From NCBI GenBank assembly GCA_018062705.1, contig JAGORQ010000005.1:1-50275 (forward strand): a stretch of DNA of 50,275 bases, written 5' to 3'. Below the pieces are notes generated by a model. That model was given only the letters and a program-made list of their open reading frames with translations. It was not told the origin of the DNA and did not search any database. The stretch comes from Candidatus Shapirobacteria bacterium (GTDB lineage Bacteria; Patescibacteriota; Microgenomatia; UBA12405). Below, piece after piece: positions 1,990 to 22,443 of this stretch. Within the stretch, counting starts at the first letter, position 1; every line of letters starts with the position of its first letter. The translations under genes and the position numbers were made by a program.

Positions 1990-1990
1990 A

Positions 1991-2330: not shown

Positions 2331-2537
2331 TTATATTAGCAAATCAGTTCCGTCATCCTCCCCCACCACTTTATTTGGATCAAAGTCAGCATCGACTATT
2401 TTTAATATCTGATTAATAATCTCTTCTGGCACTTCATCATTGTCCTTATAAATCTCCAGTATCCCCTCAGCCTTCAACATCGTGTCGGCTCCCACTTCCA
2501 TCGATACAATTAGCTCTCTAGCTTCTTTTGCTGTCAT
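2331..2537 (-). CDS. small acidic protein, unknown function (68 aa)
   Basis: ORF. Shares the block EVPEEIINQILKIVDADFD with the next gene (EVPDNIFDQILKLVDLDIK). Confidence 0.6.
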   Translation of the reverse strand: MTAKEARELIVSMEVGADTMLKAEGILEIYKDNDEVPEEIINQILKIVDADFDPNKVVGEDDGTDLLI

Positions 2538-2558
2538 AATTCACCGATTATACATCTT

Positions 2559-2855: not shown

Positions 2856-3582
2856 TCATTGGCTGCTGTTTCAAATTATTGATCTTCCGCATCGATCTTA
2901 ACATTCTCATGTTTTCTCTTGCCCGAATCTTATATTCCAATCTATCACTTGCATCTTTTGCACTACTCTCAAAATAATTAAATCTTTTATCCATATTTTC
3001 AAAAGCAAGTTCTATAAACTTTAGAGAATCATCACTTACAACTTCTGCATGTCTTGTCTTTAAACTTCTCTTAATATCGCTTAGTGAGTCTGTTTTTGAT
3101 GTTTCTATCTCTGCTCTCACTTTATTTCTAAATATTTTCCCTCTTAACGGAATTTCCGAAATAAAATCATAAGTATCTACCGCCATTTCTCTAACTGCTA
3201 TTGCCGCATCATTTACTCTCATTCCAACAGCTGTTCCCAAGCCAAGGTCTGTAACATCATCTTCAAACGAAGCAATTTGATTGCCAACATTTGTGGTAAA
3301 TCTATTGAATTGGTCTCTCAGCCCTTGACCGGCAATATTAATTGTATTGGTTAGTCTTTCACGAAAATTATCGCCTCGACCATTCCATTTGTCAACTGCC
3401 CCATCTATCACATCGGCTATTACACCAGCCTCAGCTATAGTTTCACCCAATATTGTGCCATTATTCCACCTTTCACGCACATTTTCCAAACCTAAAACCC
3501 CTACCAATCTATTCCAACCCTGTCTCACATTAGTTCTAACATTTTCAACTACGTTTCTTAATCTATTTTGTTTATTTTCCAT
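2848..3582 (-). CDS. hypothetical protein (244 aa)
   Basis: Long ORF, co-directional, with an 8-nt overlap with the downstream gene. No family recognised. Confidence 0.6.
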   Translation of the reverse strand: MENKQNRLRNVVENVRTNVRQGWNRLVGVLGLENVRERWNNGTILGETIAEAGVIADVIDGAVDKWNGRGDNFRERLTNTINIAGQGLRDQFNRFTTNVGNQIASFEDDVTDLGLGTAVGMRVNDAAIAVREMAVDTYDFISEIPLRGKIFRNKVRAEIETSKTDSLSDIKRSLKTRHAEVVSDDSLKFIELAFENMDKRFNYFESSAKDASDRLEYKIRARENMRMLRSMRKINNLKQQPMSA

Positions 3583-3615
3583 ATATTTATATTATATAGG
3601 CTTACTTTAACCTTG

Positions 3616-4989
3616 TCAACTCTTCTTAATTTTATACCCTTCAGCTGTATCCTCCACCAAATAGCCCAATTGGATTATCTCCCCTCGGAGCCTATCTGCC
3701 TCAGCCCAATTCTTATCACTTTTTGCTTCGAACCGTTTTTTTGCCAATTCTTCAACTTCTGTTGGTACTTTTTCTACTTCAACTTTCTGATTCAGATTCA
3801 GCCCCAGCACTCTGTCAAAGTCATATATCGTCGCTCGTTTATCGTTTATTGCGACATTTTCATCCTTCACCAACTTCCAGACCACTGCCATCACCTCCGG
3901 CATTGCCAAATCATTCCCTATCTTTTCCTCAAATAATTTTTTATATTCTTGGTTAACCTGCCCTACATCACCAGCCACAAAATTCCTCAGCTTATTTAAT
4001 CCAGTTTCTGCCGCTTTCAAATTATCTTCCGAAAACGCCATCCCTTTCCGATAATGCGACGACAACACCATATACCGATACGCCAGTGGGTCACATCCCA
4101 TTTTTTCCAATTCAAATACAGTATAGAGCCCACCGGTAGACTTGCTAATTTTCGCCCCGTTAAAGGTAATAAACGCATTATGCATCCAGACATTAGCCGT
4201 TTGGGCTCCAAACGCCCCGAACCCCTGAGCAATCTCATTAGTGTGATGAATCGCAATATGATCCTCTCCCCCAGTATGAATATCAAAGGGATTTCCCAGA
4301 TACTTCGTCGACATCGCCGTACATTCTATATGCCAACCCGGAAATCCCACCCCCCACGGACTATCCCATTCCATTTGACGTCGCTCATTTTTTGGTGAAA
4401 ACTTCCACAAAGCGAAGTCTGTCGGACTTTTCTTCTCTTCATTTACCTCCACCCTCGCCCCTTCTTTTAGCTTTTCGATATCGATATTGGCAAATTCACC
4501 ATAATTCGGCATTTTATCTGTATCAAAATAAATCCCATCAGATATTTTATAAGTAAAACCATTAGCCTCAATTTTTTGAATCAGCTCGATTTGCTCTTTA
4601 ATATGGTCAGTTGCTCTGGGCATCACTTCTGGCTTGGTAATATTTAGCTTCTCCAAATTTTTATCAAATTCTTTTTCGTACTTTTTAGCCAAATCCCACG
4701 CTGTTAATCCGGTAATTCGTGAGCCTTTTTCCATTTTATCTTCGCCACTATTACTGTCGTTTACCAAATGTCCCACATCAGTAATGTTCACCACCCACTT
4801 GACGTTGTATCCCAAATATCTAGCAGTTCTCACCAGCACATCCCAGCAAACATAAGCATACATATTGCCAATATGTGGACTACTATATACTGTCGGACCG
4901 CAAGAATATATTCCCATTTCCTCATCTTTAATTGGTTTGAATTCCTCTTTCTTCCTAGTCGCCGTATTGTAAAGATATATTTTTTGCAT
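3616..4989 (-). CDS. cysS: cysteine--tRNA ligase
   Basis: Class I motifs PHIGNMY (HIGH) and KISKS (KMSKS). CGPTVY...WHIECTAMS is typical of CysRS. Confidence 0.95.
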   Translation of the reverse strand: MQKIYLYNTATRKKEEFKPIKDEEMGIYSCGPTVYSSPHIGNMYAYVCWDVLVRTARYLGYNVKWVVNITDVGHLVNDSNSGEDKMEKGSRITGLTAWDLAKKYEKEFDKNLEKLNITKPEVMPRATDHIKEQIELIQKIEANGFTYKISDGIYFDTDKMPNYGEFANIDIEKLKEGARVEVNEEKKSPTDFALWKFSPKNERRQMEWDSPWGVGFPGWHIECTAMSTKYLGNPFDIHTGGEDHIAIHHTNEIAQGFGAFGAQTANVWMHNAFITFNGAKISKSTGGLYTVFELEKMGCDPLAYRYMVLSSHYRKGMAFSEDNLKAAETGLNKLRNFVAGDVGQVNQEYKKLFEEKIGNDLAMPEVMAVVWKLVKDENVAINDKRATIYDFDRVLGLNLNQKVEVEKVPTEVEELAKKRFEAKSDKNWAEADRLRGEIIQLGYLVEDTAEGYKIKKS

Positions 4990-9344: not shown

Positions 9345-9783
9345 AACTCGCGAGTTTTTCCTTTACGATGCGAGTTACTATCTCTCCCCCCACTCTTCCC
9401 GCCACCTTTTTCATTACCTGTCCCATTACCATTCCAAAATTTACCACTCCAGTATTTTGAGCCAAGACCTCATCAACAATCTTTTCCACCTCAGATTCAT
9501 CCATTTCAATTGGTAAATATTCCTTAACTACCGCTATTTCGTAATCCAACTCCTTCACTAGATCATCCCTGTTACCTTTTACAAACATCTCTCGACTCTC
9601 TTCCTTATTTTTCAACTCTTTTCTTAAAACATTCACTTCATCTGCTTCAACCATCCCCCCAGGTGGCAATTGCATTTCTTTTTTATCAATCAAAGATATC
9701 AAAAAACGCAACACACCCACCCGAGGTTGATCACGGTTTTTCAAAGCTACTACAGCATCATTTTTTAGTTTATCTTTAAGCAT
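9343..9783 (-). CDS. yqeY: GatB/YqeY domain protein
   Basis: LKNDAVVALKNRDQPRVGVLRFLIS...VLRKELKNKEESREMF...DYEIAVVKEYLP...FGMVMGQVMKKVAGRVGG. I place the start at M25 of the track ORF (ATG 9783), giving an 8-nt overlap with rpsU. Confidence 0.85.
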   Translation of the reverse strand: MLKDKLKNDAVVALKNRDQPRVGVLRFLISLIDKKEMQLPPGGMVEADEVNVLRKELKNKEESREMFVKGNRDDLVKELDYEIAVVKEYLPIEMDESEVEKIVDEVLAQNTGVVNFGMVMGQVMKKVAGRVGGEIVTRIVKEKLAS

Positions 9784-9985
9784 GACGACGTTTCTTTGCT
9801 CGGCGACGACATTTTTCGCGCCACAAAATAATTTTTTTCTTAGCGTATCGTTCAACCGAAGGCTTGTTATAAGCAGTCCGCTTACGCACTTCTTCAGTTA
9901 TATCCTCTTCTATTACTAGACGACGAAATTTACCAATAACATCATCTTTTGATTCACCTTTCTTTTTTCTAACTACAATTGGCAT
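9776..9985 (-). CDS. rpsU: 30S ribosomal protein S21
   Basis: MPIVVRKKKGESKDDVIGKFRR...YNKPSVERYAKKK, with a basic tail. Confidence 0.9.
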   Translation of the reverse strand: MPIVVRKKKGESKDDVIGKFRRLVIEEDITEEVRKRTAYNKPSVERYAKKKIILWREKCRRRAKKRRHA

Positions 9986-10044
9986 TAAATTAAAAACACC
10001 TCCAGTTACTTTAACCTATTAACAATCCCGTATTCTAACGATTT

Positions 10045-10725
10045 TTACTTCTTTTGTAAACACTTAATCCTGTCCAGGCTATTCACTACCCCATTAGCAT
10101 CGTAATCAAAATCAGTTCGACATTCTTTTGGCTCACCACTCACACCTGCAGTTTTAGTAACCATCGGTGCTACCGTAATTTTACCTGTCATACACATTAC
10201 AAAATCGACTGTATTTGTTACCCCATCTTTGTTGTAATCAGTGGTACGATCACAACCACCTGCCGGACTAGGCTTTACTAAAACCGAACTTGTTGGAGTT
10301 ACCGCAGATGGAGTCATTTCTGATACGGTTCCTTTGGTTTTAAAGGAATAGGGAATACCGTTATTATCAAAGACTTCCTCCCCTACCCTTATTCTAAAAT
10401 AATAGTTTACGTTCGATTTCAAAGGTGACAGCGACACTCTATGGTCAACCACCGTATCCGGTTCAATTGCTCTCAAAAGTAAACTTGCGGGTGTCGTTCC
10501 ATACTCCACAATTCCTGACACCGACTTATCCGACGACCAAGTAATAATTGCACTTTTACCATCGTCTGAAGGCTTAGCTAATACGTTTTTTGGATCCGAC
10601 CCAGCCGAGGCACCTGACATATATGTTCGGACATTATTTATTCCCAAAACACTCAAGACTCCAACTAAAACCACAATTACCAAAACAATAATTGTTTTAA
10701 TGCTAACTGCACCCCGATTCATCAT
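10045..10725 (-). CDS. secreted FN3/PAP-N-like domain protein with C-terminal dockerin-type repeats
   Basis: N-terminal TM anchor. ITWSSDKSVSGIVEYGTTPA...HRVSLSPLKSNVNYYFRIRV is FN3-like. The dockerin-type repeats are DYNKDGVTNTVDFVMCM and DYDANGVVNSLDRIKCL. Confidence 0.75.
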   Translation of the reverse strand: MMNRGAVSIKTIIVLVIVVLVGVLSVLGINNVRTYMSGASAGSDPKNVLAKPSDDGKSAIITWSSDKSVSGIVEYGTTPASLLLRAIEPDTVVDHRVSLSPLKSNVNYYFRIRVGEEVFDNNGIPYSFKTKGTVSEMTPSAVTPTSSVLVKPSPAGGCDRTTDYNKDGVTNTVDFVMCMTGKITVAPMVTKTAGVSGEPKECRTDFDYDANGVVNSLDRIKCLQKK

Positions 10726-11456
10726 AATATTCTCATAACTGCCCCAGCAATAACCGACATCAAACCAACGACCATCACTATCACAGTTGTTTCCACACTT
10801 CCAGTTCGTGGCAACTCGGTAGAACCACTAGTTGAAGTAGTTGTAGTTGTGGTTGTGGTCGAACTGTTAGATGTCGTAGTCGGTGTCGGAGCGGTGGTCA
10901 CTGTTGTATCAGTAGTCGAGCTAGCAGTAATGGTGTAGGATCCGCTTTGGTTGGAAGTGCAATCAACCACATCTGCCCCAGATTGATTAATAATATTTGA
11001 TTCCGTCACCGAACCTGGTGTACAAGTTAAATTAACAGTCGCCACACCAGTGTTTTTCGCTCTAAAAGTTATTTTTAACAAATCATGATTTGCTACTACA
11101 CCTTCATACACACTTGAGTTAGCTGACGGTAAAGTAATTTCAAATTTACCAACATCATTTTTAATGATTGGCGAACTACTAGTATAAGTAAAATTGTAAC
11201 CACCGTCAGGAATAGTCGCTTTCTGAATTGACACAACTTCCAATTTAGATGAATCAAAGGTTGCTGCTACATCTATTCCGATTACTTTTTCAGTACCAGA
11301 ATCGACACCCAAAACCACATCAAACTGACTTCCGTTAGCGACGCTAGTTGTTGCTGGTGTCAAACTAAAATGTGGTGCTGCTATTGCCTCAACCGGAGAC
11401 ACCAACATCCCTACCATTACTGCGCTAATTAAAAAGGTCAGCTTTTTTAATTTCAT
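10722..11456 (-). CDS. cohesin-domain protein with poly-Thr stalk and LPXTG sortase signal
   Basis: Signal peptide. The cohesin-like sequence is SVANGSQFDVVLGVDSGTEKVIGIDVAATFDSSKLEVVSIQ...LLKITFRAKNTGVATVNL. The C-terminus reads TTTTTTTTSTSGSTE-LPRTG (10800-10814), then a hydrophobic helix and MRIL. Confidence 0.8.
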   Translation of the reverse strand: MKLKKLTFLISAVMVGMLVSPVEAIAAPHFSLTPATTSVANGSQFDVVLGVDSGTEKVIGIDVAATFDSSKLEVVSIQKATIPDGGYNFTYTSSSPIIKNDVGKFEITLPSANSSVYEGVVANHDLLKITFRAKNTGVATVNLTCTPGSVTESNIINQSGADVVDCTSNQSGSYTITASSTTDTTVTTAPTPTTTSNSSTTTTTTTTSTSGSTELPRTGSVETTVIVMVVGLMSVIAGAVMRIL

Positions 11457-12055
11457 TTCTTCACAACATTAATCGTTAATTTGTCTCCCGAGTACGGCAA
11501 TACCTTACTCGTAGCATTCTCTACAAACATGGTAGCAGATTCTTTCATCTCATTACCAGTACTTAATTCAAGATCAAATGTTCCTTCTACCTTAGGCTTT
11601 ATTTCAAATGATACCAATGCCATACTTTCATCTTTTTCTGTTCTAAAACCATCAGCTTCAGTAATCAAATAATTAACTACCACCATATCCTTAGTTGTAC
11701 TTACTTTTGAAAAAGCCGGCTTTGGCAATCGATCATCATAAGATAGTTTTGATATGTCAAATGCTTTTGTGTTTATTTTTAAATAAACATTAGCGGAATC
11801 AATTGACATTGGGTTCAAAGCTCTAGCCAATACTGACACAGTTGCCACTTCACCCACTTTTAATGTTTCCTTATTAGTCACAATTTGTGTCTCAAAAGCC
11901 ACTTCTTTATCAACTTTTTCGGTTGGAGTAGGATTATTTACTATAAAATCTTTAACTCTACCTGCATTCTTAGTAATCAGTATTACACTTTCTAGCAACA
12001 CCAATACAGCCACAATCGGCAAAACTGTTTTTACAAATTTATTATTCTTATCCAT
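11453..12055 (-). CDS. membrane-anchored cohesin-like protein
   Basis: N-terminal TM. LKVGEVATVSVLARALNPMSIDSANVYLKINTKAFDISKL...ALVSFEIKPKVEGTFDLEL. ATGA overlap with the downstream gene. Confidence 0.65.
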   Translation of the reverse strand: MDKNNKFVKTVLPIVAVLVLLESVILITKNAGRVKDFIVNNPTPTEKVDKEVAFETQIVTNKETLKVGEVATVSVLARALNPMSIDSANVYLKINTKAFDISKLSYDDRLPKPAFSKVSTTKDMVVVNYLITEADGFRTEKDESMALVSFEIKPKVEGTFDLELSTGNEMKESATMFVENATSKVLPYSGDKLTINVVKK

Positions 12056-12087
12056 TATTAATTTTTAATTATTAATTATTAATTAGT
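12055..12087. repeat. TAATTAT/TAATTAG word array
   Basis: attattaatttttaattattaattattaattag spans the stop of the 558-aa gene (12083-12085) and the start codon at 12055. Confidence 0.8.
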
Positions 12088-13759
12088 ACAACTGTGCTTG
12101 CTTTTCACTTAGAGACAGCATCAATGTAGCCACATCTTGCGACTCCATTTTACAGTTGCCATTCAGGTCAGCCAACATCGACTCACCAGAAGCAGATTCA
12201 GTTCTCTTAAGTGATTCAGTTTTGACCAAAGAGAAATCACGACCGTCAACTACTCCATCCTGAACATTATTATCACCAGTTACGTCACCACCTAGTAATG
12301 GGTAACCTGAAAAGTCATAAACTGGACTTGATGCCGCATCAGCAATCAAGTTAATTTCACCACCAGCTTGATCATAATAAGTTGCTTGATTGTCACGACC
12401 ATATTTAACTTGCAAATGTTTTGGTCCTTTGACAAACACAGCTAAGTTACTAGTATGGTTAAATCCCTCAAGTGGCAAGCTCACCCTAAACTTCTGCAGA
12501 CCCAAAGTTTGACCTGTTTCTCTAGCAGGAATTACGTTCGAATAAGTTTTCATTGTACCGTCCCCCGCTCTCACCGAAATTGTTAATGGCCAGTCAACAG
12601 CACAGGCAGAATCAGTGGTTACTCCGGCAAAGCTCATTACAAATTTTAAGTACGGTGCTTGGGCCAAGGCCTCGGTTGGAATTGCTGGTACATCAGTCGC
12701 TGTGGGCTGTGGTGGTACATCAGTGGCAGTTGGTTGCAGTGCCGTAGTCACAGTTGGAGTTCGAGTATTGGTTGGTGCCAAGGTGTTTGTTGGTGCACGA
12801 GTGTTTGTTGGAGCCATTGTATTTGTGGGTGCTCGAGTATTTGTAGGTACTGGAGTATCCGTCGCACCAACAACTGGTGTATTAGTAGCTTGTGGTTGTG
12901 TTGGAACTTGAGTTCCTTCCGTCACTGTAAATATAGATCCCGTCACACCATCCACACTGATTGCCATATCGTTACTAGCAGTATTATTACCTGAAATTCT
13001 TGACTTATCCGGAATAATATCAATAGTACCAGTTCCAGTAGCTATAGCTTTAAATTTAACTGTCATCACCTCCACATTTCCCGACTTCAATCGACTAACA
13101 TTGTCTGCCACTACAGTTACCATCAAACATTCTTTCCCGTTGGGACCTGCCTCAACGAAAGATAGTGGAATCGAGTCAAATCCATTCGCATCATTTTTGG
13201 TTATTCTAGTTCCCATCTCTGCCACTGGCATTGAAATCTTTTTGTCATAACACATATACAGTTTGACGTTTTGGATCGCCGCACTCCCACCATCAATAGT
13301 TATTGGAGTGGGTGTTTTTGGCAAATTAGCTGTACATCCTGCTGTCATATTCGTTGTCCAAGCACCACCTGCCGAGGGACAACAAAACACTGCCCCACCA
13401 CAAGAAGCCACTCTACTTGCAGAGTTGCATAAACTTTGCAAAGTACCATCAGATGTCAGATTACAACTTCTCAAAACACCATCCGCGCTTGGACACTCCT
13501 CTGTACAATTAGGTACACGAATAGTTGGAGTAGCTGGCTGTGACGTTACTGTCACCTTGACTGATCCAGAATTTACCCAAACATGTGCCGTCAAATCTTC
13601 CCCTACTCTGGCCGTCATTGAAGAAGGTAAAGTTTGCATCGTCGCTCCGGCAAAAAAAGCTTTATTACGATTGTCTTGATTTCTCTTCACCAGCCACATT
13701 ACTGCTCCCAGTGCTAACAGTAGAACTGCTGTTATTAGGATTGTCTTTTTTTGTTTCAT
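12083..13759 (-). CDS. secreted modular protein: Cys-containing N-region, cohesin-like domain, PT-rich tandem repeats, C-terminal dockerin
   Basis: TM anchor followed by LVKRNQDNRNKA. The cohesin-like end reads MTVKFKAIATGTGTIDIIP. Repeats are (APTNT[RML])x5 and (QPTATDVP[PA])x2. The dockerin reads GDVTGDNNVQDGVVDGRDF...ADLNGNCKMESQDVATLMLSL. Confidence 0.75.
   Translation of the reverse strand: MKQKKTILITAVLLLALGAVMWLVKRNQDNRNKAFFAGATMQTLPSSMTARVGEDLTAHVWVNSGSVKVTVTSQPATPTIRVPNCTEECPSADGVLRSCNLTSDGTLQSLCNSASRVASCGGAVFCCPSAGGAWTTNMTAGCTANLPKTPTPITIDGGSAAIQNVKLYMCYDKKISMPVAEMGTRITKNDANGFDSIPLSFVEAGPNGKECLMVTVVADNVSRLKSGNVEVMTVKFKAIATGTGTIDIIPDKSRISGNNTASNDMAISVDGVTGSIFTVTEGTQVPTQPQATNTPVVGATDTPVPTNTRAPTNTMAPTNTRAPTNTLAPTNTRTPTVTTALQPTATDVPPQPTATDVPAIPTEALAQAPYLKFVMSFAGVTTDSACAVDWPLTISVRAGDGTMKTYSNVIPARETGQTLGLQKFRVSLPLEGFNHTSNLAVFVKGPKHLQVKYGRDNQATYYDQAGGEINLIADAASSPVYDFSGYPLLGGDVTGDNNVQDGVVDGRDFSLVKTESLKRTESASGESMLADLNGNCKMESQDVATLMLSLSEKQAQLY
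12687..12851 (-). repeat. in-frame coding tandem repeats (2 x 27 nt, 5 x 18 nt)
   Basis: The 27-mers lie at 12687-12713 and 12714-12740. The 18-mers run from 12762 to 12851 and encode APTNTR/M/L units. Confidence 0.9.
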
Positions 13760-13761
13760 AG

Positions 13762-16401
13762 TTAGTTGGCTGATGAGCTATTTAATTGAATAAAGTTTTG
13801 CGTCCAGATAGACCGGTCGTAGATCGTGACCTTCGAGTCGCAGTCAAAGTCTGATAACCATACTTTGCTCATTGTCTCGGCTCCTCTGTCAGTTGTATAT
13901 TCCTTGGTCCACAAACTTCGATCATCAATGTCTACCATGCCATCACAGTTGGCATCTCCCTTAGTTTTGTTCAAGAATGGTGGTTTAACTACTCCACCAC
14001 AGCTAGTTGCTTCTGCACCAGTAGCCAGTACGTAGCCATTACCTTGGAAGTAGGAACTAAACCATTTGTAATCGCCATTATTGACATAACATTTGAAATC
14101 ACTTGGACACATGGTGCACATCGAAGGAGAAATGGTAATTGACGGCCTAGTAGCCATTGTTGGAGTTGCTGGCACATCAGTTGGATTAGATCCACCACCA
14201 GAAGTAGGTTTGGCAGTCGGCGTAGCAACAGGACAGTTACCAATTAATCCTAATATACATATGCCACCGCTTGTTGGCGTAGCCGTTGGCTTTATTAATG
14301 TTGGAGTTGCTGTTGGCACTCGAGTTGGACTGGGCGTTGAAGTGCCGGAACCATCAGGTACACACCTAAATCCAGATGAATCACAGCTGTACCCCGTCGC
14401 ACAAGCTTGAGAACTAAAGCCAGTCCTGGCTAGATTACAAACATAAGCTGTGTCATTTTGGCATTTCTGATCAATTCCATTACACGCATCACCCAGCGCT
14501 GATGTAGGAATTGGAGCACCACAACACAGCAATGGTGCTACACATCCAGGTGTACAAAAAGAGCTATTAGCTGGCAATCTACCCTCAGCTGTACAACTGT
14601 ATCTACAAATACCTGTTACTCCTGGCATAACAGTTGGTGATGGAGCCAATTTTACCGACGGAGTTGCTGTTGGCTTAACTGGCGTTGGCGAATTACACGA
14701 TGTTCCATCAACAGTTTGACTACAATTACCAGTGTAAATATACTTTCCACCTACCAGTCCGCAATGACAAGGTTCAATAGTGGGAGTATAAGCAGTTGGT
14801 TTTGGAGTCAAGGTTGGAGTATTTGTTGGGACAGCTCCTAGTTTGCAGTTACAGTCACTAATTACTCCGGCAGTTCCTGCATGACAGGTACCAAAAATAT
14901 TACAGCTATCACCAATTTTCTTACCTGAACATACAGAGGCGATACCGCCACATAAATTAACTGGTGTCACTGTCGCTACTGGAGTAGTTGCTTTACATTC
15001 CCAAGCCAAAGTAGTCGTGTTACATGTCCAACCATAAATCATATTGGCAATTTGACAAGATGTTGTCGGATAAGTTGTTTGGGAACATTGTTTGGGGGTG
15101 GGTGTAGTAGGTGCGACACCACACATAGTTCCAGTGGAAAAACACACTGAAGCTGATACTGGATAAGATTTTCCACTGCAACACCCAGCAAAAGATACTG
15201 AACACACACCGTCTTTCATACATGGAATCGGCGTTACCGTCGCTACTGGAGTGGTTGCTTTACATTCCCAACCTAAAGTAGTTGTATTACAAGACCAACC
15301 ATAGATTGTGTTTCCAATTACACAGGAAGTTGTTGGATAAGTTGTTTGAGAACATTGACGAGGAGTGGGAGTGGTTTTTGGAATACAACAAGTAGAAGTG
15401 CTATTTGTGCCACAAGAATAAGCAACATTATTACTTGCATCCCCTAAATTACATAAACCATTACTACTACAATAACCAGGACAAAATGGCTTATATGGTG
15501 TTGCGGTCGCCACAGGAGTTGTTGCTTTACATTCCCAACCTCCAGTTGTTCCATTACAAGACCATCCATAGATTGTGTTTCCAATTACACAGGAAGTTGT
15601 TGGATAAGTTGTTTGAGAACATTGACGAGGGATTGTTGTGGGTGTGGAAGCGGGATAAGTGTTAACAGGACAAATATTACTAAAGTAATTACATGTGTTT
15701 GTCGTAGGATTACAACAATAAATATTTAAATTAACAGTAGGAATTAGTGTATTCGTTGGTACCTTAGTCACAGTCGCTATAGGCGAAATTGGAAACGCAG
15801 TAATATCGCGACACAGTTGCCCTAAGACAGTAGAACCACAACCCGTCCCAGTATATCTTCCACTCGAGGCTTCACAAAAACAGGCTGGTGTCGGGATATT
15901 TGTTGGTTTAACTGAGGTACATTGAGCAAATCCCATTGGTGAAGGACAGGTAGCAACTCTCATCCATGTCCCAACCGCATCGTTTGGAGCACTACAACAA
16001 ATTGCTGGAAGTTGTGATCCAGTTGGTGAGGGTGAAGGTAACGACGAAGTAGTTGACGGACAAGTACCACCATTGACAGTGGCTATACATTTACCAGGAC
16101 AAATAGCATTGGTGCTGGCAGAACAATAGACACCACCAGCCATTGCAGTTGGTGTTGCTGTGGGTACAGCTGTTGCTGGCGCACTAGTTGGGTAATAACA
16201 AATAGTTGTTCCATTGGACGGATAACAAACCGAGGTACCTGCCGCTTTATTTCTAGTATCTTGATTCTGTTTAACCAATTGGGTTGCTACTGGCACCGCT
16301 ATTGCCATCAACAGTAGACCCAAAAGCAAAGGAATTTGAGCCAAACCTTTATTTTCACTGAAATTAAAATAATTCCTAAAATTCCGCAGTTTCTGGATCA
16401 T
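13762..16401 (-). CDS. very large cysteine-rich secreted modular protein with C-terminal dockerin
   Basis: 879 aa. TM anchor followed by LVKQNQDTRNKA. Recurrent Cys-rich modules are separated by PT linkers. The dockerin reads GDANCDGMVDIDDRSLW...SDFDCDSKVTIYDRSIW. Confidence 0.8.
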   Translation of the reverse strand: MIQKLRNFRNYFNFSENKGLAQIPLLLGLLLMAIAVPVATQLVKQNQDTRNKAAGTSVCYPSNGTTICYYPTSAPATAVPTATPTAMAGGVYCSASTNAICPGKCIATVNGGTCPSTTSSLPSPSPTGSQLPAICCSAPNDAVGTWMRVATCPSPMGFAQCTSVKPTNIPTPACFCEASSGRYTGTGCGSTVLGQLCRDITAFPISPIATVTKVPTNTLIPTVNLNIYCCNPTTNTCNYFSNICPVNTYPASTPTTIPRQCSQTTYPTTSCVIGNTIYGWSCNGTTGGWECKATTPVATATPYKPFCPGYCSSNGLCNLGDASNNVAYSCGTNSTSTCCIPKTTPTPRQCSQTTYPTTSCVIGNTIYGWSCNTTTLGWECKATTPVATVTPIPCMKDGVCSVSFAGCCSGKSYPVSASVCFSTGTMCGVAPTTPTPKQCSQTTYPTTSCQIANMIYGWTCNTTTLAWECKATTPVATVTPVNLCGGIASVCSGKKIGDSCNIFGTCHAGTAGVISDCNCKLGAVPTNTPTLTPKPTAYTPTIEPCHCGLVGGKYIYTGNCSQTVDGTSCNSPTPVKPTATPSVKLAPSPTVMPGVTGICRYSCTAEGRLPANSSFCTPGCVAPLLCCGAPIPTSALGDACNGIDQKCQNDTAYVCNLARTGFSSQACATGYSCDSSGFRCVPDGSGTSTPSPTRVPTATPTLIKPTATPTSGGICILGLIGNCPVATPTAKPTSGGGSNPTDVPATPTMATRPSITISPSMCTMCPSDFKCYVNNGDYKWFSSYFQGNGYVLATGAEATSCGGVVKPPFLNKTKGDANCDGMVDIDDRSLWTKEYTTDRGAETMSKVWLSDFDCDSKVTIYDRSIWTQNFIQLNSSSAN
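14830..15630 (-). repeat. 3 x 267-nt (89-aa) in-frame tandem units inside the Cys-rich gene
   Basis: The anchor sequence acattgacgagg / acattgtttggg occurs at 15619-15630, 15352-15363 and 15085-15096, exactly 267 nt apart. Each unit holds a conserved half, P[RK]QCSQTTYPTTSC.I.N.IYGW.CN.TT..WECKATTPVAT, plus a divergent Cys-rich half. Confidence 0.9.
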
Positions 16402-16526
16402 TTTGATGTAATTTGATTAAAATAGACCGAAATACTAATAAAAAAGTAAACCACTTCTACTCTATCGGGTCAATATATCAACTGTGAAAGACCTACTCCT
16501 TCCTCCAAGTATTTATTCAAAAAAAA

Positions 16527-17114
16527 TTAGAAAATTAAGTTTTTAATTACCAATCTTACCAACATCACTCCCCCATTTATCACCAACTTTAGATCATAAA
16601 ACCAATTTTTATTTTTTACATATTCCAAATCACTCTGCATCCATTGGGCAAAACTCAGTTTATGGTAACCCATAAATATCCATGGACTAATAATTCCTGG
16701 ATTTACTTTTTCTCTATTTTTATATACCTCTTTTATTTTATTTTCTTCCGCCACTGGCAACGGCCGTGGCCCCACCAAGCTCATCTCTCCTCTGACTATA
16801 TTAAATAATTGCAACAACTCATCCAATCCACTATGAAACAAAAACCCACCAAACTTAGTTAATCGCGGATCATTATATATTTTAAACACTGGCCCATCTG
16901 CCTCGTTTAGCTTCCTCAACTTTTCCTGCTCCCTATCCGCCCCAAATCTCATCGATCTAAACTTATACAACCAAAACTTTTTACCATTCATTCCCACTCT
17001 TTGCTCGGCATACCAAAACGGCCAGCCACTAGTTAACACAATTAATACTGACAAAATCACCAAAACTGGCGATAATACTATTATCAAAACCAAAGCCGTT
17101 AATCTCTCTATCAT
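16527..17114 (-). CDS. polyprenyl-phosphate sugar phosphotransferase (bacterial sugar transferase family, small monotopic type)
   Basis: WPFWYAEQRVGMNGKKFWLYKFRSM...ADGPVFKIYNDPRLTKFGGFL...LDELLQLFNIVRGEMSLVGPRPLP. Confidence 0.9.
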   Translation of the reverse strand: MIERLTALVLIIVLSPVLVILSVLIVLTSGWPFWYAEQRVGMNGKKFWLYKFRSMRFGADREQEKLRKLNEADGPVFKIYNDPRLTKFGGFLFHSGLDELLQLFNIVRGEMSLVGPRPLPVAEENKIKEVYKNREKVNPGIISPWIFMGYHKLSFAQWMQSDLEYVKNKNWFYDLKLVINGGVMLVRLVIKNLIF

Positions 17115-17331
17115 TGTTTTTCTAATTTATCTTCTTATCTTACCAACCTTTGGTGTCGGTATCGACTTCCAAGAATCTCTTATTTTTTACTCTCTGCCAT
17201 CAATCATTTTTTTTAATTTATTTATCGATAAAACTCAACTAAAAAATTTCCTTAATGCTACCGGCATACTCATATTTTCCAGTCTCATAATTCTATCAAT
17301 CATCTCCACCATTTTTTCTCTCAACATTGGC

Positions 17332-18927
17332 ATGTCCTACTACTTTATGTGGAGTTTTATCGTCGTTATTCTAATAGTCAATTTAGCCAATGTTTACCTC
17401 GACGACTTCAGCCAACTTTACCAACAAATAATCTATATCAGTCTAGCTTATTCAACAGTATTTTTAATCCAAAAATTTGGTTTGATTCACCTCTCAGTCA
17501 AATCTTATGGTGATAATTTTATCTCCCAAATTTGGGGTCATAGCTACCTTGGCAACTTCCTTATTTTCCCTATAATTATTTTGTTATCAAGGCTAAAACA
17601 AGCAAAACCAAAGAACTACCTATTATTAGCTTTTTTTATTCTTGCTCTTTTACTCACCAACTCCCGCTCGGCTTTTGTTGGGTTAATAATTGGCACTTTT
17701 TTTATTCAGTTTCCCTTTAAAAAAACTTTTTATCTTGTAAGTCTGAGTTGTCTTGCCTGGCTACTCTACCAGTCAAACATTCCTGGTCAAAACTACAAAA
17801 ATCTCTCTGGCTCTCGACCTCAATATTTTCACCAAGCCATGATTGGATTCCGTCAAGCTCCGCTTTTTGGCAACGGCCCCAACACTTTTGACATTATTAA
17901 TCGCCAACACCTCCAATATGGTGAAACCGGCGCCAACACCTCCCACAACTCAGTTCTAGACTTTCTCACCAACAATGGCCTTATTTTTACCTCCATTATA
18001 GTTTTTTTGGTAATCTCTGGTTTAGTTTTTCAATTCAATCACCACCGTTTACTTTTTTGTCTAGGGTTGGCTAGTTTCAGTAGTTCCCTTATTGACTCTT
18101 TTTGGTCAAACTTTGGCTTACTTAGCCTTAGTTTAATTTTTATTTTGTACCAACACCCACTACTATATTCCCCGATTTTAAAACCAAAAACCAAATCGAC
18201 TATGTTTTTATTTTGCCTTTCGGTTATCTTATTTTTATTTTTTCTCTCCAAAACAATTTCTGATTTTTTATTTTTTAGTGGGAATTATTCCACTAGTCTC
18301 AAGTTTGACCCTTTTAATCTCAATTCCCGGTTAATCTCGATCAACTCCAACCTACCCACCACACTAAAGCTTTTCAAAAACGAATCAACTGTTTATCAAA
18401 AACTAATTGGTCAAAACCCCACTTCTAGTACAACCCCCTATTTTCTCAAATTAATTTCCCTTGATCCTCAAAATAATTTACCTATTTTTTTAAAATTAAA
18501 CCAGTACGCCACAGCTACCAAAAATATTGAAGTATTCCACCGATTGGACAATTTAAATTTACCCCTCGATCCAACCCGAATCCCCGAGTACTATTCCGTC
18601 CAACTTTCAATCAACTATTATAATTTTGCTGTTTTCCTCTGGGAACAAAAACAATTCACCGAATCTATCGACTTTTTAATCAAGGCCACAAAATTTTCAC
18701 CAGATTATAGTAATTTCCAAGTAACACTCGCCAACGCCTATTGGCACAACAACCAAAAAGATTTAGCTTTTGCTACGCTCGAAAAATGCTCGCTATCACC
18801 TTCATCTCACAGCCACTGTTCTACCTATTTAAAAGACCACCTGTCACTTGATTATGAATTACCAAACGATCCGGTCTGGATTCAGGCAAGTAATTCAATC
18901 CCAATTCCCCCGGAGCAAAAACCATAA
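17332..18927 (+). CDS. O-antigen ligase/polymerase (Wzy_C)-like membrane protein with C-terminal TPR-like region
   Basis: Multi-TM. LLTNSRSAFVGLIIG...NGPNTFD...TSHNSVLDFLTNNGL. The same frame stays open and TM-like upstream to at least 17083 without ATG/GTG/TTG, so the true N-terminus is uncertain. Confidence 0.75.
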   Translation: MSYYFMWSFIVVILIVNLANVYLDDFSQLYQQIIYISLAYSTVFLIQKFGLIHLSVKSYGDNFISQIWGHSYLGNFLIFPIIILLSRLKQAKPKNYLLLAFFILALLLTNSRSAFVGLIIGTFFIQFPFKKTFYLVSLSCLAWLLYQSNIPGQNYKNLSGSRPQYFHQAMIGFRQAPLFGNGPNTFDIINRQHLQYGETGANTSHNSVLDFLTNNGLIFTSIIVFLVISGLVFQFNHHRLLFCLGLASFSSSLIDSFWSNFGLLSLSLIFILYQHPLLYSPILKPKTKSTMFLFCLSVILFLFFLSKTISDFLFFSGNYSTSLKFDPFNLNSRLISINSNLPTTLKLFKNESTVYQKLIGQNPTSSTTPYFLKLISLDPQNNLPIFLKLNQYATATKNIEVFHRLDNLNLPLDPTRIPEYYSVQLSINYYNFAVFLWEQKQFTESIDFLIKATKFSPDYSNFQVTLANAYWHNNQKDLAFATLEKCSLSPSSHSHCSTYLKDHLSLDYELPNDPVWIQASNSIPIPPEQKP

Positions 18928-19596
18928 ATTTTTCCAATATCTCCCAGCTAATCTTTTGGGTTCTGTCATCAGCCGATACAACCACTCCCCTCCTCTATCT
19001 CTCAACCACCTAGGACACTGTTTTTTATTTCCACTCAAAAAATCAAACGCCGCCCCCACCGTTACAATCATTTTTTTTACTTTTCTCTTTTTCAACTCGT
19101 ATCCTGTTTCCACTTGTTTTTTTGCCCCCAGACCCAACCAGACTATTTCTGCTTTTGATTTTTTGACAATTTCTGCCAACTCATCATAATCCTTGGTCTC
19201 AAACTCATCCTTCATCGGCATCACCACATAATCACCATGTTTAAGGAAAAATTTTCGATTCTTCTCATCCCCAACGAATAGATGTTTTATCTCCCTTGTT
19301 AAAGGGAGGTCGCGCGAAGCGCGGGAGGGATTTAAATCCTTGGAATTAGTAAATTTTTCCATCAGCTCGGGGCCATACACCCGACTCCCCTTACCTGTTC
19401 TCAACCTATTCAACCACACCAACGGCATCCCATCGGTTGTCAACAAATCTGCACTCGATAACTTTTTGGCAAACTCACTATCTTCTTTGGCCATCATCAG
19501 TTCGTTTGTCGTACAGCAAAAAACCAATCCATTATCGTGAGATCTAACCCAGTCAACCGTCTCTATCAAACTCAGATTACTTAACTTCAACCTCAT
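18895..19596 (-). CDS. WecB/TagA/CpsF-family (GT26) glycosyltransferase
   Basis: LLTTDGMPLVWLNRL...IVWLGLGAKKQ...TVGAAFDFLSGNKKQCPRWLRDRGGEWLYRLMTEPKRL. I place the start at M81 of the track ORF (ATG 19596). The upstream part of the track ORF overlaps the divergent GT2 gene. Confidence 0.85.
   Translation of the reverse strand: MRLKLSNLSLIETVDWVRSHDNGLVFCCTTNELMMAKEDSEFAKKLSSADLLTTDGMPLVWLNRLRTGKGSRVYGPELMEKFTNSKDLNPSRASRDLPLTREIKHLFVGDEKNRKFFLKHGDYVVMPMKDEFETKDYDELAEIVKKSKAEIVWLGLGAKKQVETGYELKKRKVKKMIVTVGAAFDFLSGNKKQCPRWLRDRGGEWLYRLMTEPKRLAGRYWKNLWFLLRGNWD
19291..19339 (-). repeat. GC-rich palindromic element inserted in-frame in the GT26 gene
   Basis: The minus strand reads GGATTTAAATCC CTCC CGCGC-TTC-GCGCG A CCTCCCTT-TAAC-AAGGGAG. 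It is translated as DLNPSRASRDLPLTRE. Same architecture as 6286-6331 and 34570-34615. Confidence 0.75.
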
Positions 19597-19601
19597 GCCC
19601 T

Positions 19602-19607
19602 TATAAT
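19602..19607 (+). promoter_or_regulatory. -10 box (TATAAT) in an 18-bp divergent spacer
   Basis: The spacer 19597-19614 is gcccTTATAATAccaatt. TATAAT lies 7 nt before the GTG at 19615. On the other strand TATTAT lies 6 nt before the ATG at 19596. Confidence 0.5.
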
Positions 19608-19614
19608 ACCAATT

Positions 19615-20409
19615 GTGCCACCCAAAATTACTATTGTTACTCCATCCTACAATCAGGGCAAGTTTCTTGAGAGGACAATTTTGTCTGTCATCAATCAAAA
19701 TTACCCCAACCTCGAATACATCCTTATCGATGGTGGTTCTACCGACAATAGCCTCCAAATTATCAAAAAATATCAAAAATATTTTACTTATTATCAAATA
19801 AAAAAAGATCACGGCCAATCCGATGCCATCCAGCAAGGGTTTGATCGCTCAACCGGCAAAATTATGGGTTGGCTCAATTCCGACGACATCCTTCTACCTG
19901 GCTCACTCCAACTAATCGGCCAATTATTTTCCCAAAATAAACAGCTAAACTGGCTTACCTCCCAATCATTTATCATCAACGACTCCGACCATATCGTCCG
20001 TACAGGTATCCAATTTGGCAAGTCACGTTTCTTTGCTCGACTTGGTTTTTATCATGGTAAATTTTTAGGTTTTATTCCCCAAGAGGGCACATTTTGGACC
20101 AGAAAACTTTGGCTCAAGTCAGGTGCCACAGTTCCTCAAAAAAATCAGGTTATGGATTTTCGTCTTTGGCAAAAATTTGCCATATATTCACCCTTAGTCA
20201 ACCTCGAAGCACCCCTAGCCGCTTTCCGCCTTCAACCCAATCAAAAAACTTCCTCCCACACCGAGTACTATCGTGAGATCAATCCGCTTTTGGTTTACCT
20301 ACCATACTTGTTCCGATTGGTCGGCAGAATTTACGCGCCAATCTCTCGTCTAATTTACCCTCGAATTTACTTTAGCCGTCCCCAAAACAAATGGATTTTT
20401 AAATTATGA
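19615..20409 (+). CDS. family 2 glycosyltransferase
   Basis: ITIVTPSYNQGKFLERTILSVINQNYPNLEYILIDGGSTD...WLNSDD. Confidence 0.9.
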   Translation: MPPKITIVTPSYNQGKFLERTILSVINQNYPNLEYILIDGGSTDNSLQIIKKYQKYFTYYQIKKDHGQSDAIQQGFDRSTGKIMGWLNSDDILLPGSLQLIGQLFSQNKQLNWLTSQSFIINDSDHIVRTGIQFGKSRFFARLGFYHGKFLGFIPQEGTFWTRKLWLKSGATVPQKNQVMDFRLWQKFAIYSPLVNLEAPLAAFRLQPNQKTSSHTEYYREINPLLVYLPYLFRLVGRIYAPISRLIYPRIYFSRPQNKWIFKL

Positions 20410-21605
20410 CAGTTGGTTTTTTTCTCCTCCACTACCCAGTCTTTTCCGAAACATTTGTCAGCAAAGAATTGCTAACTCTCCAAAGCCTCGGAGTAGATGG
20501 TGTCATCGTTTGCGAACAGAAAAATATAAAACCACCTTTTCATCCCCACATTACCCAAATCAAATTTCCCATAATCGAAATTTATCAAAAAATCTTTTCT
20601 AATAAATTTGTTCCCATAATTTTTGCCCATCTCTACTGGCTTTTCAAAAATCCAATCGGTTATCTAAAATCTTTTATTATATTTATTAAGTTTTTAAATT
20701 TTCACCACCTCCGCGTCTTTATTAAATCTGCCTATCTTGCTAAGCAACTGAGCCCTAAGCACTTAGCACTAATCTATGTTCACGAGGTTGACAGCCCCTG
20801 TCTTTATGGCCTAATTTGCAGTCGTCTCCTCAACATCCCTTGTGGCATTATTTTCCATACTCAATACCTTTTGGCCCAAAATCAATTTCTCAAACAAAAA
20901 ATAAGCTATGCCAATTTCACTATTTTTCAATCCATTTATTCCCAACAAATTGCTGGTAATCCCGCCAAATCGTTTGTTGTCTCCACTCCCGGTATCGATA
21001 CTGATTTATTTAAACCTGTCCAAAATTTTACTTTTCCAAAACAAGTTAAGCTGTTAACTATCGGCCGGCTCGAAGAAGCCAAAGGCTATATTCACCTACT
21101 TTCAGCCGTCAAAATCTTGTCCAAAAATTATCCCGACATTTTATTAACCATCATTGGCGACGGTTCCCTCAAACCTCAGTTTGAAAAATATATAATCGAC
21201 AACAAACTCCAAAAAAACATTAAACTACTTGGTTTTGTTCCCCACGGTCCAGAACTCCTAAAAATTATTCATCAGCATCAATATTTTATTCTCCCTTCAA
21301 TCGTCGATTCTCAAAAAGTCCATGATGTCCACCCCAACGTCGTCAAAGAAGCCATGGCTTGCGGTCTAATCACTATTACCAGCCAATTAGGAGGCATCAA
21401 CGAAATCATTCAGAACAAATTTAATGGTTTTATTATCAATCGAATCAACGCCAAAAATATCGCCAAAAAAATTTCCCAAATCCACCACCTTTCTCGAATT
21501 AAAAAAACAAATATATCTCACCAAGCCCGCCTCGAAATTCTCCATAATCACCAACAACAAAAAGTTTGCCAGAAATTAATCAATGTCTTTTTTAGATTTC
21601 TTTAA
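20406..21605 (+). CDS. family 4 (GT-B) glycosyltransferase
   Basis: LLTIGRLEEAKGY...LLGFVP...FILPS...KEAMACGLITITSQLGGINEII.NKFNGFII. 4-nt overlap with the GT2 gene. Confidence 0.85.
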   Translation: MTVGFFLLHYPVFSETFVSKELLTLQSLGVDGVIVCEQKNIKPPFHPHITQIKFPIIEIYQKIFSNKFVPIIFAHLYWLFKNPIGYLKSFIIFIKFLNFHHLRVFIKSAYLAKQLSPKHLALIYVHEVDSPCLYGLICSRLLNIPCGIIFHTQYLLAQNQFLKQKISYANFTIFQSIYSQQIAGNPAKSFVVSTPGIDTDLFKPVQNFTFPKQVKLLTIGRLEEAKGYIHLLSAVKILSKNYPDILLTIIGDGSLKPQFEKYIIDNKLQKNIKLLGFVPHGPELLKIIHQHQYFILPSIVDSQKVHDVHPNVVKEAMACGLITITSQLGGINEIIQNKFNGFIINRINAKNIAKKISQIHHLSRIKKTNISHQARLEILHNHQQQKVCQKLINVFFRFL

Positions 21606-22443
21606 AATCAGTGACCGTTAAATTTACATTAAATTTACCAAAGTCCAAATTTAACTGATTGTTAATCTTAATCGGCATTATGCCCATATACAGGCTAACT
21701 CCATTCAAGTCGATAGCAGTTACTTCCAATTTCAATTTAACTTGCTTCCTATCATTATCAGGCACCTCCACCAACCTGTCGCCCGACACAAATTTCCGTG
21801 TCGCCGGCAACAACTTCACCTCTTTAATGTCAGCAATAACTTTTCCATCACTATCTTTGACAGTATTCCCCAACTTAAACAGCTCGGCTAAATAATTAGA
21901 AACACCGTTTGAAATAGTATTTGCCCAATACGGCTCTTGATTAGCTATATTATTGGGGTTCAAAAAACCCTCTACCAAATATTTTTTTGTAGTTACTGGG
22001 TAGTTATCATTATTCAAACTAACCACCACCCCCTTTATCAAAATTCCGCCAATTTTAAAAGATTGGTAACTACCTACCAGCACCGGCAAACCATCATAAC
22101 TATAAATACCACTTCGTTTATCAAACGCAGTTCTAATACGCAATGTCACATAAAACTCTTTACTTTTCTCACTAAGATTCTGGCTATACACCTTCACTAT
22201 CTCTGTGTCCAAATGTCCACCTTTATCAAACTGCTTCACTCCAGAACGGACATTAGCCAAATACCATTGAGGTAATTCCGCTCCATAACTCTCCATATTT
22301 TCAAATTGGGCAATTTTCAAAACCAAGGTTAAATAACTTTCACTTCGACGTAAAAAAATAGCCGACGTTACCAGAACAAATATAAAAACTCCCACCCCCA
22401 ATATATCCACTACCCTGATTTTATAATTCTTTAAATTCCACAT
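21592..22443 (-). CDS. membrane-anchored hypothetical protein (DUF4330-like)
   Basis: N-terminal VVDILGVGVFIFVLVTSAIF anchor followed by a beta-rich body. The family call is tentative. Confidence 0.5.
   Translation of the reverse strand: MWNLKNYKIRVVDILGVGVFIFVLVTSAIFLRRSESYLTLVLKIAQFENMESYGAELPQWYLANVRSGVKQFDKGGHLDTEIVKVYSQNLSEKSKEFYVTLRIRTAFDKRSGIYSYDGLPVLVGSYQSFKIGGILIKGVVVSLNNDNYPVTTKKYLVEGFLNPNNIANQEPYWANTISNGVSNYLAELFKLGNTVKDSDGKVIADIKEVKLLPATRKFVSGDRLVEVPDNDRKQVKLKLEVTAIDLNGVSLYMGIMPIKINNQLNLDFGKFNVNLTVTDFKEI

Follow-up and report, generated by a model that had tools for sequence, protein, structure and literature searches.

What kind of system is built by five adjacent genes that carry cohesin-like and dockerin-like modules and no recognizable enzyme? 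The question is raised by positions 10045 to 16401 of a Candidatus Shapirobacteria contig (JAGORQ010000005.1), which was analyzed over its entire length of 50,275 bp and is hereafter called the window. A preliminary description, made from the DNA alone, had read this five-gene cassette as a surface-assembly operon in which cohesins and dockerins, together with a sortase signal, display non-enzymatic, cysteine-rich cargo. According to the present analysis, what the cassette builds is, with an estimated probability of roughly 60%, a self-contained cohesin-dockerin scaffold without enzymes, located at the surface of a Shapirobacteria-like cell, i.e., a member of the Microgenomates within the candidate phyla radiation (CPR).

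The genes are numbered here from the upstream end. All five open reading frames (ORFs) run in the same direction on the minus strand. Genes 1 and 2 are 2 nt apart and genes 2 and 3 are 27 nt apart, while the two remaining junctions are ATGA overlaps, read straight from the DNA (11453-11456 and 10722-10725). This layout is operon-like, and genes 3, 4 and 5 are translationally coupled. The co-directional arrangement, the overlaps and all peptide strings quoted in the preliminary description were recovered from the ORFs and their translations. The same genes are also present on a 3.7-kb contig assembled from a different public sequencing run.

Cohesin and dockerin modules

The cohesin fold (PF00963) is a nine-stranded jelly-roll beta-sandwich, and it had been claimed for the 244-, 200- and 558-aa proteins. 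All three assignments held, through Pfam for the first and through AlphaFold2 (AF2) models searched with Foldseek for the other two. Gene 4 (10722..11456, 244 aa) matches Pfam Cohesin with 32.3 bits against a gathering threshold of 24.1, the module, COH4, spanning residues 32-148 (nt 11013-11363). Most of the 106 gene-4 homologues also have a precomputed PF00963 match. Genes 2 and 3 present no direct match to this family, and neither the 200-aa product of gene 3 nor the 879-aa product of gene 1 has a direct Pfam or NCBIfam family.

For gene 3 (11453..12055, 200 aa), the tests restricted to sequence were weak: hhalign gave an 18% probability to the gene-4 family, and the profile reached E values of only about 0.1-0.3 against the PDB, with four of five matches being cohesins. 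Three homologues have a precomputed Pfam Cohesin match, and a weak one is found in the gene-3 homologue of locus L002. What these tests left weak was settled by structure prediction and Foldseek, on the basis of which gene 3 is accepted as a cohesin. The AF2 model, built from 25 homologues, has a mean predicted local distance difference test (pLDDT) of 83, exceeding 90 across the beta-sandwich at residues 54-198 (COH3, nt 11462-11896), which follows a disordered linker of about 25 aa. The 50 best Foldseek matches in the PDB are all cohesins, with E values down to 8e-9 and target-normalized TM-scores mostly between 0.6 and 0.8.

The third cohesin, COH2, is found in gene 2 (12083..13759, 558 aa) and occupies residues 36-66 and 159-285 (12905..13654), its two parts being separated by an insert of about 90 aa. 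Here the AF2 model presents a pLDDT of 75-93, and Foldseek matched the cohesins 6kgf_A (6.5e-6, target-normalized TM-score 0.68), 2ccl_A, 1g1k_A, 1anu and 1ohz_A; the cohesin matches span E values from 6.5e-6 to 7.7e-4 and TM-scores from 0.57 to 0.68, while the few pilin chains also retrieved have poor TM-scores. Alignment of COH2 to the gene-4 cohesin family by hhalign yielded a probability of 97%. Given that low-complexity linkers swamped the homologue search for gene 2, only 10 matches were obtained, and the resulting shallow alignment led to a mediocre AF2 model for the protein as a whole (mean pLDDT 58).

Dockerins (PF00404) are duplicated F-hands with two 12-residue calcium loops, each of which is followed by a helix. 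A calcium loop was defined here by Asp or Asn at positions 1, 3, 5, 9 and 12, with two loops about 35-45 residues apart, and strict motifs of this kind were absent from every other ORF of the window. Three dockerins had been claimed. The claim stands for the 879-aa and 558-aa proteins, whose profiles are specific at E values of about 1e-4, but the module of the 226-aa protein can be called only dockerin-like.

Gene 1 (13762..16401, 879 aa) encodes a hypervariable Cys-rich protein that ends in a type-1 dockerin, DOC1 (13777..13983, residues 807-875), with calcium loops DANCDGMVDIDD (residues 816-827) and DFDCDSKVTIYD (residues 851-862). A small conserved module, CxxCPxxFxCY..YKWF, precedes it. 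When the DOC1 family profile was compared with the PDB, all 20 matches were dockerins, the best being 5lxv_B (1e-4) and 4fl4_A (1.4e-4); Pfam Dockerin_1 is matched by 4 of 15 gene-1-type proteins.

Gene 2 has the composition of an adaptor: an N-terminal transmembrane (TM) segment with the motif LVxxNQDxRxxA, COH2, a Pro/Thr repeat linker, a conserved beta domain and a dockerin. The last two form the XDOC2 unit (12086..12664, residues 366-558), in which the beta domain covers approximately residues 366-490 and the dockerin residues 491-547, with loops GDVTGDNNVQDGVVDGRD and DLNGNCKMESQD. Its Pfam Dockerin_1 score, 22.8 bits, practically equals the gathering threshold of 22.9, and all 18 PDB matches of the family profile are dockerins or dockerin-bearing proteins (1ohz_B at 6.7e-5). 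The second loop is canonical, whereas the first has a 6-residue insertion that is missing in the relatives L020-L022. In all relatives the beta domain of about 125 aa abuts the dockerin without a linker. AF2 models it as beta strands at a pLDDT of about 75, and the profile of the gene 2 C-terminus retrieved no X-module among PDB sequences. A tandem repeat of 18 or 36 nt (5.9 or 2.7 copies) at 12753-12858 encodes the (A/T)PTNTR Pro/Thr linker of this protein.

Gene 5 (10045..10725, 226 aa) consists of an N-terminal TM segment or signal peptide, an FN3-like domain, a Pro/Thr linker and the module DOC5. The FN3-like domain reported earlier (residues 45-130, nt 10336-10593) is borderline in gene 5 itself, with 28.8 bits against a Pfam threshold of 30, and is matched confidently in homologues. 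DOC5 (residues 158-222, nt 10060-10254) has loops DYNKDGVTNTVD and DYDANGVVNSLD at residues 163-174 and 207-218, each bracketed by an invariant Cys pair. Dockerins 2y3n_B (1.9e-4) and 1ohz_B (4.3e-4) are the best matches of its family profile; Pfam Dockerin_1 reaches only 13.5 bits in gene 5, and one homologue has a confident precomputed match. DOC5 is named dockerin-like only because of its scores against EF-hands, its Cys brackets and the Pro/Thr linker between its loops, and by sequence it is not separable from an EF-hand pair.

Pairing of the modules in related loci

The preliminary description had suggested conservation of the five-gene block in related CPR genomes as a check, and the block proved strongly conserved. 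About 80 Shapirobacteria or Microgenomates loci were fetched, without dereplication, and are referred to by L numbers. The cassette was found in 17 genome loci, in 6 contigs obtained by exact protein look-up and in 59 metagenome loci, with the same architecture and the same housekeeping neighbors. The gene-4 homologues (106 clusters) come from metagenome-assembled genomes named Candidatus Shapirobacteria, Woesebacteria, Microgenomates or Patescibacteria, some of the homologues being named "cohesin domain-containing protein" by NCBI; it is by the naming of homologues that the host is judged to be Shapirobacteria-like. Gene 5 is the most conserved of the five proteins. Cassette proteins present identities of 24-65%, compared with 40-88% for the neighboring genes, i.e., the cassette evolves faster.

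Hidden Markov models (HMMs) of the modules were run over 21 genome or contig loci and 59 metagenome loci, the flanks being covered on both strands in genomes and as cassette-strand ORFs in metagenomes. A single architecture emerged: gene 1 as signal, variable body and DOC1; gene 2 as COH2 and XDOC2; gene 3 as TM segment and COH3; gene 4 as COH4 and LPxTG; and gene 5 as FN3 and DOC5. Cross-matches are nearly absent among the three cohesin HMMs and among the three dockerin HMMs, and this mutual divergence fits three separate binding specificities. Cassette modules were not found in other ORFs of the window, of the genome-locus flanks, or on the cassette strand of the metagenome loci.

Departures from this architecture occur in gene 2. 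In the window and in L024, an insert interrupts COH2, and this cohesin is doubled in tandem within one adaptor in L023 (3892-5784) and L025 (5694-7361). The adaptor gene itself is duplicated in L057 (233-3050), where both adaptor cohesins score as COH4-like instead of COH2. A DOC1 protein lies immediately upstream of the cohesin-bearing gene 2 in 37 of the 37 loci (not dereplicated) with a readable upstream region. Two separate lineages, represented by L002/L063 and L080/L081, lack both COH2 and DOC1; there, the Cys-rich cargo keeps the gene-1 signal and is fused directly to XDOC2, which yields a four-gene variant (L080 at 1774-3999). The joint loss and the fusion of cargo to XDOC2 are what would be expected if DOC1 plugs into COH2 and XDOC2 into an anchored cohesin. 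Joint presence and absence in this natural variation thus suggest that DOC1 pairs with COH2.

Presence and absence do not discriminate between COH3 and COH4 as partners of XDOC2 and DOC5, since all four of these modules are always present. By likeness to the XDoc-ScaE arrangement of Ruminococcus flavefaciens, XDOC2 most likely pairs with COH4, which makes COH3 the most likely partner of DOC5.

The same data bear on the possibility that the modules do not pair at all, in which case they would be generic extracellular folds on five independent, co-transcribed surface or secreted proteins. Peer et al. in 2009 reportedly described non-cellulosomal cohesin-like and dockerin-like modules as widespread, many of them without a known partner, which counts for this explanation, as does the closeness of DOC5 to EF-hands. 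However, three cohesin types and three dockerin types are kept across loci, except in the lineages without COH2 and DOC1, and in those two lineages this pair was lost jointly, with the cargo re-fused to XDOC2. Moreover, a cohesin and a dockerin in one adaptor protein make sense only for chaining. We consider five unconnected proteins very improbable.

Anchoring, exposed cargo and absence of enzymes

The proposed scaffold requires its parts to be exported and held at the surface. All five proteins would be exported through N-terminal signals or TM segments. Gene 4 encodes a Sec-type signal peptide, COH4, a Thr/Ser stalk, the motif LPRTG (nt 10800-10814), then SVETTVIVMVVGLMSVIAGAVMRIL, which forms a hydrophobic helix and a tail ending in MRIL. 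Across 22 homologues, the sorting signal keeps L215, P216 and G219 without exception and T218 in at least 90%; several gene-4 homologues also carry PF00746. Sortase is reported by Méheust et al. to be near ubiquitous in Microgenomates (PMC6744442). A peptidoglycan wall is to be expected from the PBP2-type transpeptidase and the MreB encoded in the window. The gene 4 cohesin would be joined covalently to this wall via LPRTG by a sortase encoded elsewhere in the genome.

Gene 3, by comparison, had been described as membrane-anchored. This agrees with its predicted N-terminal TM helix (residues 4-29), which looks uncleaved and presents a conserved Glu-Ser, and the gene 3 cohesin would hence stay in the membrane. 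The N-terminal TM segment or signal peptide of gene 5 is conserved as well, with a possible cleavage at ...SGASA|G; in both gene 3 and gene 5, the degree of TM conservation is unusual.

In gene 1, the N-terminal signal or TM region (residues 1-55) is conserved: GLAQIPLLLGLLLMAIAVPVATQLVKQNQDTRNKAAG. Its core was observed at the same position in all relatives as G(L/F)AQIPLLIGLLLMAIAVPVATxLVQxNQDxRNxAA (16237-16350, gene 1 residues 18-55). A motif that follows the TM segment, LVxxNQ(D/E)xRxxA, is common to gene-1 and gene-2 proteins (gene 2 residues 20-36, 13651-13702) and is absent from all remaining ORFs of the window and of the genome-locus flanks (about 330 kb). LVxxNQDxRxxA may be a lineage-specific sorting or processing signal. 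The gene-1 signal, in which G|L/F-A-Q-I-P precedes a hydrophobic helix, was also considered as a class III prepilin signal; neither an N_methyl nor a prepilin match was obtained with NCBIfam at E ≤ 1 and no Glu is present at +5, and the prepilin reading is not supported.

The protein behind this signal is unusual in composition. Gene 1 contains 72 Cys (8.2%), arranged in small modules with Pro/Thr linkers between them, among which are three copies of a 42-aa four-Cys repeat (residues 258-299, 347-388 and 436-477; 14971..15630). The repeat reads P(R/K)QCSQTTYPTTSC...WECKATTPVAT, and its copies share 81-95% identity in protein and 75-92% in DNA. In relatives, the gene-1 counterparts range from 420 to 1643 aa, mostly with 5-9% Cys, and can be aligned only at the signal and the dockerin, with a mean column identity of 16%. 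CPR bacteria have extracytoplasmic disulfide-forming machinery (PMC6744442), which bears on Cys-rich exported proteins such as this one. A further Cys-rich module of about 55 aa, CxEECPxxDGVLRxC...SLCN...CG...FCCPSxGGxW, lies within the COH2 insert of the window (gene 2 residues 85-142, nt 13334-13507) and elsewhere sits in linker regions of gene 1 or gene 2 (L002, L007, L008, L011 and L013). Its distribution is that of a domain which moves among gene-1 and gene-2 proteins.

Taken together, the modules suggest a chain of anchor cohesin, adaptor and variable Cys-rich tip. The gene 2 adaptor would plug its XDOC2 into an anchored cohesin, most likely that of gene 4, and its COH2 would hold the DOC1 of gene 1, which, hypervariable and presumably disulfide-rich, would form the distal exposed end. 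Gene 5 would fill the remaining cohesin, most likely that of gene 3. The displayed Cys-rich protein does not look catalytic and most plausibly binds something extracellular, such as a host cell or a surface. This adhesion role is proposed because gene 1 is hypervariable, enzymes are absent, and precedents exist in CttA of R. flavefaciens and in a Saccharibacterial dockerin protein, both considered below. The sortase step, the disulfide bonding and the adhesion role are drawn by analogy only; likewise, the terms "adhesion or host attachment" and "episymbiotic" in the preliminary description were inference only. A more specific version, an enzyme-free "adhesosome" serving Shapirobacteria as an organelle for attachment to host or substrate, is offered tentatively: its exchangeable, fast-evolving, disulfide-knotted tip would set partner specificity, as in phage receptor-binding proteins, and LVxxNQDxRxxA would be its sorting or processing signal.

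A structural explanation competes with this role for the same architecture. Instead of an adhesin, genes 3 and 4 could hold genes 1, 2 and 5 as a constitutive protective or spacing coat, comparable to an S-layer or to a tether between wall and membrane. Such an envelope layer would suit a cassette that lies amid core housekeeping genes in every relative sampled, that has one membrane-anchored and one wall-anchored cohesin, and that combines translational coupling of genes 3-4-5 with the marked conservation of the gene 3 and gene 5 TM segments. The variation of the distal protein in length and sequence, however, looks more like diversifying pressure from partners or predators than like a coat that forms a lattice, and no S-layer-type domain was detected in the cassette with Pfam or NCBIfam. 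Hence, we regard an envelope layer as unlikely.

The absence of enzymes was asserted in the preliminary description, together with the conclusion that this is not a classical cellulosome. Both assertions are borne out: the cassette proteins, as well as 15 gene-1-type proteins of relatives, have no catalytic domain and no carbohydrate-binding module (CBM), and neither dockerin-borne enzymes nor a CBM scaffoldin are present in the window and the fetched flanks. One GH123_cat match, in a protein of L010, was rejected; it is below threshold and covers 60 of 324 profile positions, and the protein has no dockerin. A search with the DOC1 module retrieved 263 representatives from the library at E ≤ 1e-3. 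In nearly all of these the module is C-terminal, and most of the 50 proteins scanned among them carry no Pfam domain other than dockerin.

These searches also bear on the proposal that the cassette is a minimal cellulosome-type scaffold, on whose three cohesins hydrolases with dockerins encoded elsewhere would dock to degrade glycans of a host or of the environment, with the Cys-rich and FN3 proteins as accessory binders similar to CttA or to CBM-bearing proteins. The visible sequence amounts to 50 kb of the genome, and known sca-type clusters likewise encode structural proteins only (PMC4081043). Some DOC1-module library proteins carry enzymatic domains, as detailed below, and a secreted GH39 protein is a conserved divergent neighbor of the cassette in most relatives. 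Yet this GH39 protein (31505-32848, plus strand) has an N-terminal signal or TM segment and no dockerin, although a functional link between it and the cassette is possible. Furthermore, the three dockerin types are absent from non-cassette ORFs of the window and the fetched flanks, there is one dockerin per cohesin type and no obviously free cohesin (but two COH2 modules in L023 and L025), and the metabolism of Shapirobacteria is very sparse (PMC6744442). A hydrolase scaffold is therefore judged improbable.

Some observations weigh against the enzyme-free, wall-anchored scaffold preferred here. Regarding the anchor, gene 4 scores 14.6 bits with NCBIfam LPXTG_anchor, just under the threshold of 15.9. 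Of the sortase substrate signal claimed earlier, the LPRTG motif, the stalk and the hydrophobic helix stand, but the "basic tail" comes down to one basic residue, an Arg. No sortase Pfam match was found in window ORFs of at least 110 aa, nor any credible TLxTC ORF in the scanned genome-locus flanks. Regarding the modules, the dockerin part of the gene 2 model presents a pLDDT of 30-40, and the beta domain beside it is a candidate X-module by its position alone. The DOC5 profile matches the EF-hand protein CaBP1 (6.6e-4) and calmodulins nearly as well as dockerins; its loops are separated by a Pro/Thr linker, which, with the four invariant Cys, is atypical. The argument from joint loss draws on two lineages only. 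Finally, M4 peptidase, alginate lyase, DUF4434 or M64 domains occur in a few of the 50 scanned DOC1-module proteins, whose taxonomy is unassigned, and the rest of the genome could encode enzymes with dockerins.

Genomic setting and known systems

The conserved gene order around the cassette is S2-Tsf-RRF-M50, usually the GH39 gene on the opposite strand, genes 1-5, and then S21-YqeY-YbeY-DnaX-RecR-CysS-SSB. The preliminary description had also pointed to an adjacent large glycan locus that could glycosylate the Pro/Thr linkers, which did not hold as a general feature. Among the 13 loci that reach upstream, GH39 adjoins gene 1 in 8 and M50 in 1 (L025), and glycan genes lie between GH39 and gene 1 in only 4 (the window, L004, L011 and L021). 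Since the insertion occurs in 4 of 13 loci only, the idea of a conserved functional link between cassette and glycan locus is rejected. The island in the window (16527-31476) encodes a Bac_transf protein, two Wzy_C proteins, WecG, GT1 and GT2 enzymes, a methyltransferase, a PIG-L protein, an ABC-2 exporter and a mannosyltransferase.

The region from 12001 to 16000 is anomalous in composition, with a GC content of 0.43 and a skew of about -0.1 to +0.03, while most of the contig has a GC content of 0.34-0.40 and a skew of -0.3 to -0.48. This is probably an effect of Thr/Pro/Cys-rich coding in genes 1 and 2 and not of foreign origin, the latter being disfavored because the cassette is syntenic in all relatives. 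The gap between genes 2 and 3 is occupied by 4.6 copies of a 7-nt ATTATTA repeat (12054-12085). A scan for promoters and terminators over 9700-17400 yielded counts not above those of shuffled sequences, with a weak -35/-10 candidate only at 16488-16459.

Elsewhere in the window, two paralogous AAA_14/DUF4143 ATPases and a 753-aa TrwB/VirD4-like (DUF87/HerA) coupling-type ATPase are encoded at 36099-37280, 38457-39704 and 41145-43406, between ribosomal-protein genes and topoisomerase I. These genes may be remnants of a mobile element or of type IV secretion. Four loci with the cassette and typical Shapirobacteria synteny (L006, L011, L013 and L019) are titled "uncultured Gammaproteobacteria bacterium" and are probably mislabeled.

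Attachment of Microgenomates-type CPR bacteria to partners or surfaces is nearly unexplored, and none of them is in culture. The cassette is a conserved, compact and tractable candidate for such work: its six small modules can be expressed and assayed in pairs, its wall anchor is predicted to be covalent, and its hypervariable exposed protein could be used as bait for a partner or host. If the proposed reading is true, the cohesin-dockerin field would gain a minimal system from nature that has three separate binding pairs and no enzymes. The rewiring within the lineage, where the adaptor was lost and the cargo fused to its dockerin, informs the evolution of scaffold architectures, and protein assembly could gain new parts that do not cross-react from these modules.

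The preliminary description took the system as its best candidate for an undescribed one. No description of the cassette was found in the literature on cohesin, dockerin or sortase in CPR, Patescibacteria, Microgenomates or Shapirobacteria, and this part of the claim stands, but this kind of system has a precedent in the sca cluster of R. flavefaciens. Similarity to known cohesins, including those of the sca cluster, is at the level of the domain family only, with about 10-15% identity in structural alignments. The cassette is genuine, conserved and amenable to testing, yet it does not represent a mechanism of a categorically new type.

Compared with the cellulosome of Clostridium (Acetivibrio) thermocellum, the likeness consists of the cohesin jelly-roll and the duplicated calcium-binding dockerin, with 1ohz, 2ccl, 2b59 and 4fl4 among the best matches. 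That system, however, has SLH anchoring, nine-cohesin scaffoldins, CBM3 and dozens of enzymes, none of which is in the cassette. Cohesin-dockerin pairing outside cellulose degradation is shared with systems of Clostridium perfringens and Ruminococcus bromii. The R. bromii amylosome is a non-cellulosomal cohesin-dockerin system, and the gene 3 fold matches include 2jh2, 2vo8 and 2w1n, which are C. perfringens toxin or glycoside hydrolase complexes, with a cohesin beside an FN3 domain in 2w1n. These systems assemble enzymes (sialidases, GH84 and amylases), whereas the cassette is a compact, conserved, enzyme-free operon with three separate pairs.

Within the CPR, epibiotic growth of the Saccharibacterium Southlakia epibionticum requires SEML1_0315, a dockerin-domain protein of its envelope, for which the authors speculate on a role in host adhesion or glycan targeting (PMC10633639). 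It resembles the cassette proteins as a dockerin-bearing envelope protein in a CPR bacterium. This likeness is one of description; SEML1_0315 belongs to another CPR lineage, and no cohesin partner, sortase anchor or operon of this kind has been reported for it.

The closest analogue is the R. flavefaciens sca cluster, which resembles the cassette in its five co-directional structural genes, wall-anchored cohesin, adaptor and non-enzymatic dockerin protein. ScaB and CttA dock via a dockerin preceded by an X-module, and in gene 2 a conserved beta domain, a candidate X-module by position, joins its dockerin directly. The cluster includes the sortase-anchored, single-cohesin ScaE, the adaptor ScaC, with one cohesin and one dockerin, and CttA, a non-enzymatic adhesin that docks on ScaE (PMC4081043). 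There, in contrast with the cassette, the multi-cohesin ScaA and ScaB are present, and the scaffold ultimately carries many dockerin-bearing glycoside hydrolases. The cassette, for its part, usually has one cohesin per protein, no enzyme attached, a hypervariable Cys-rich cargo and a CPR host, and its additional parts are a cohesin held in the membrane and an FN3 protein whose dockerin-like module is Cys-clamped.

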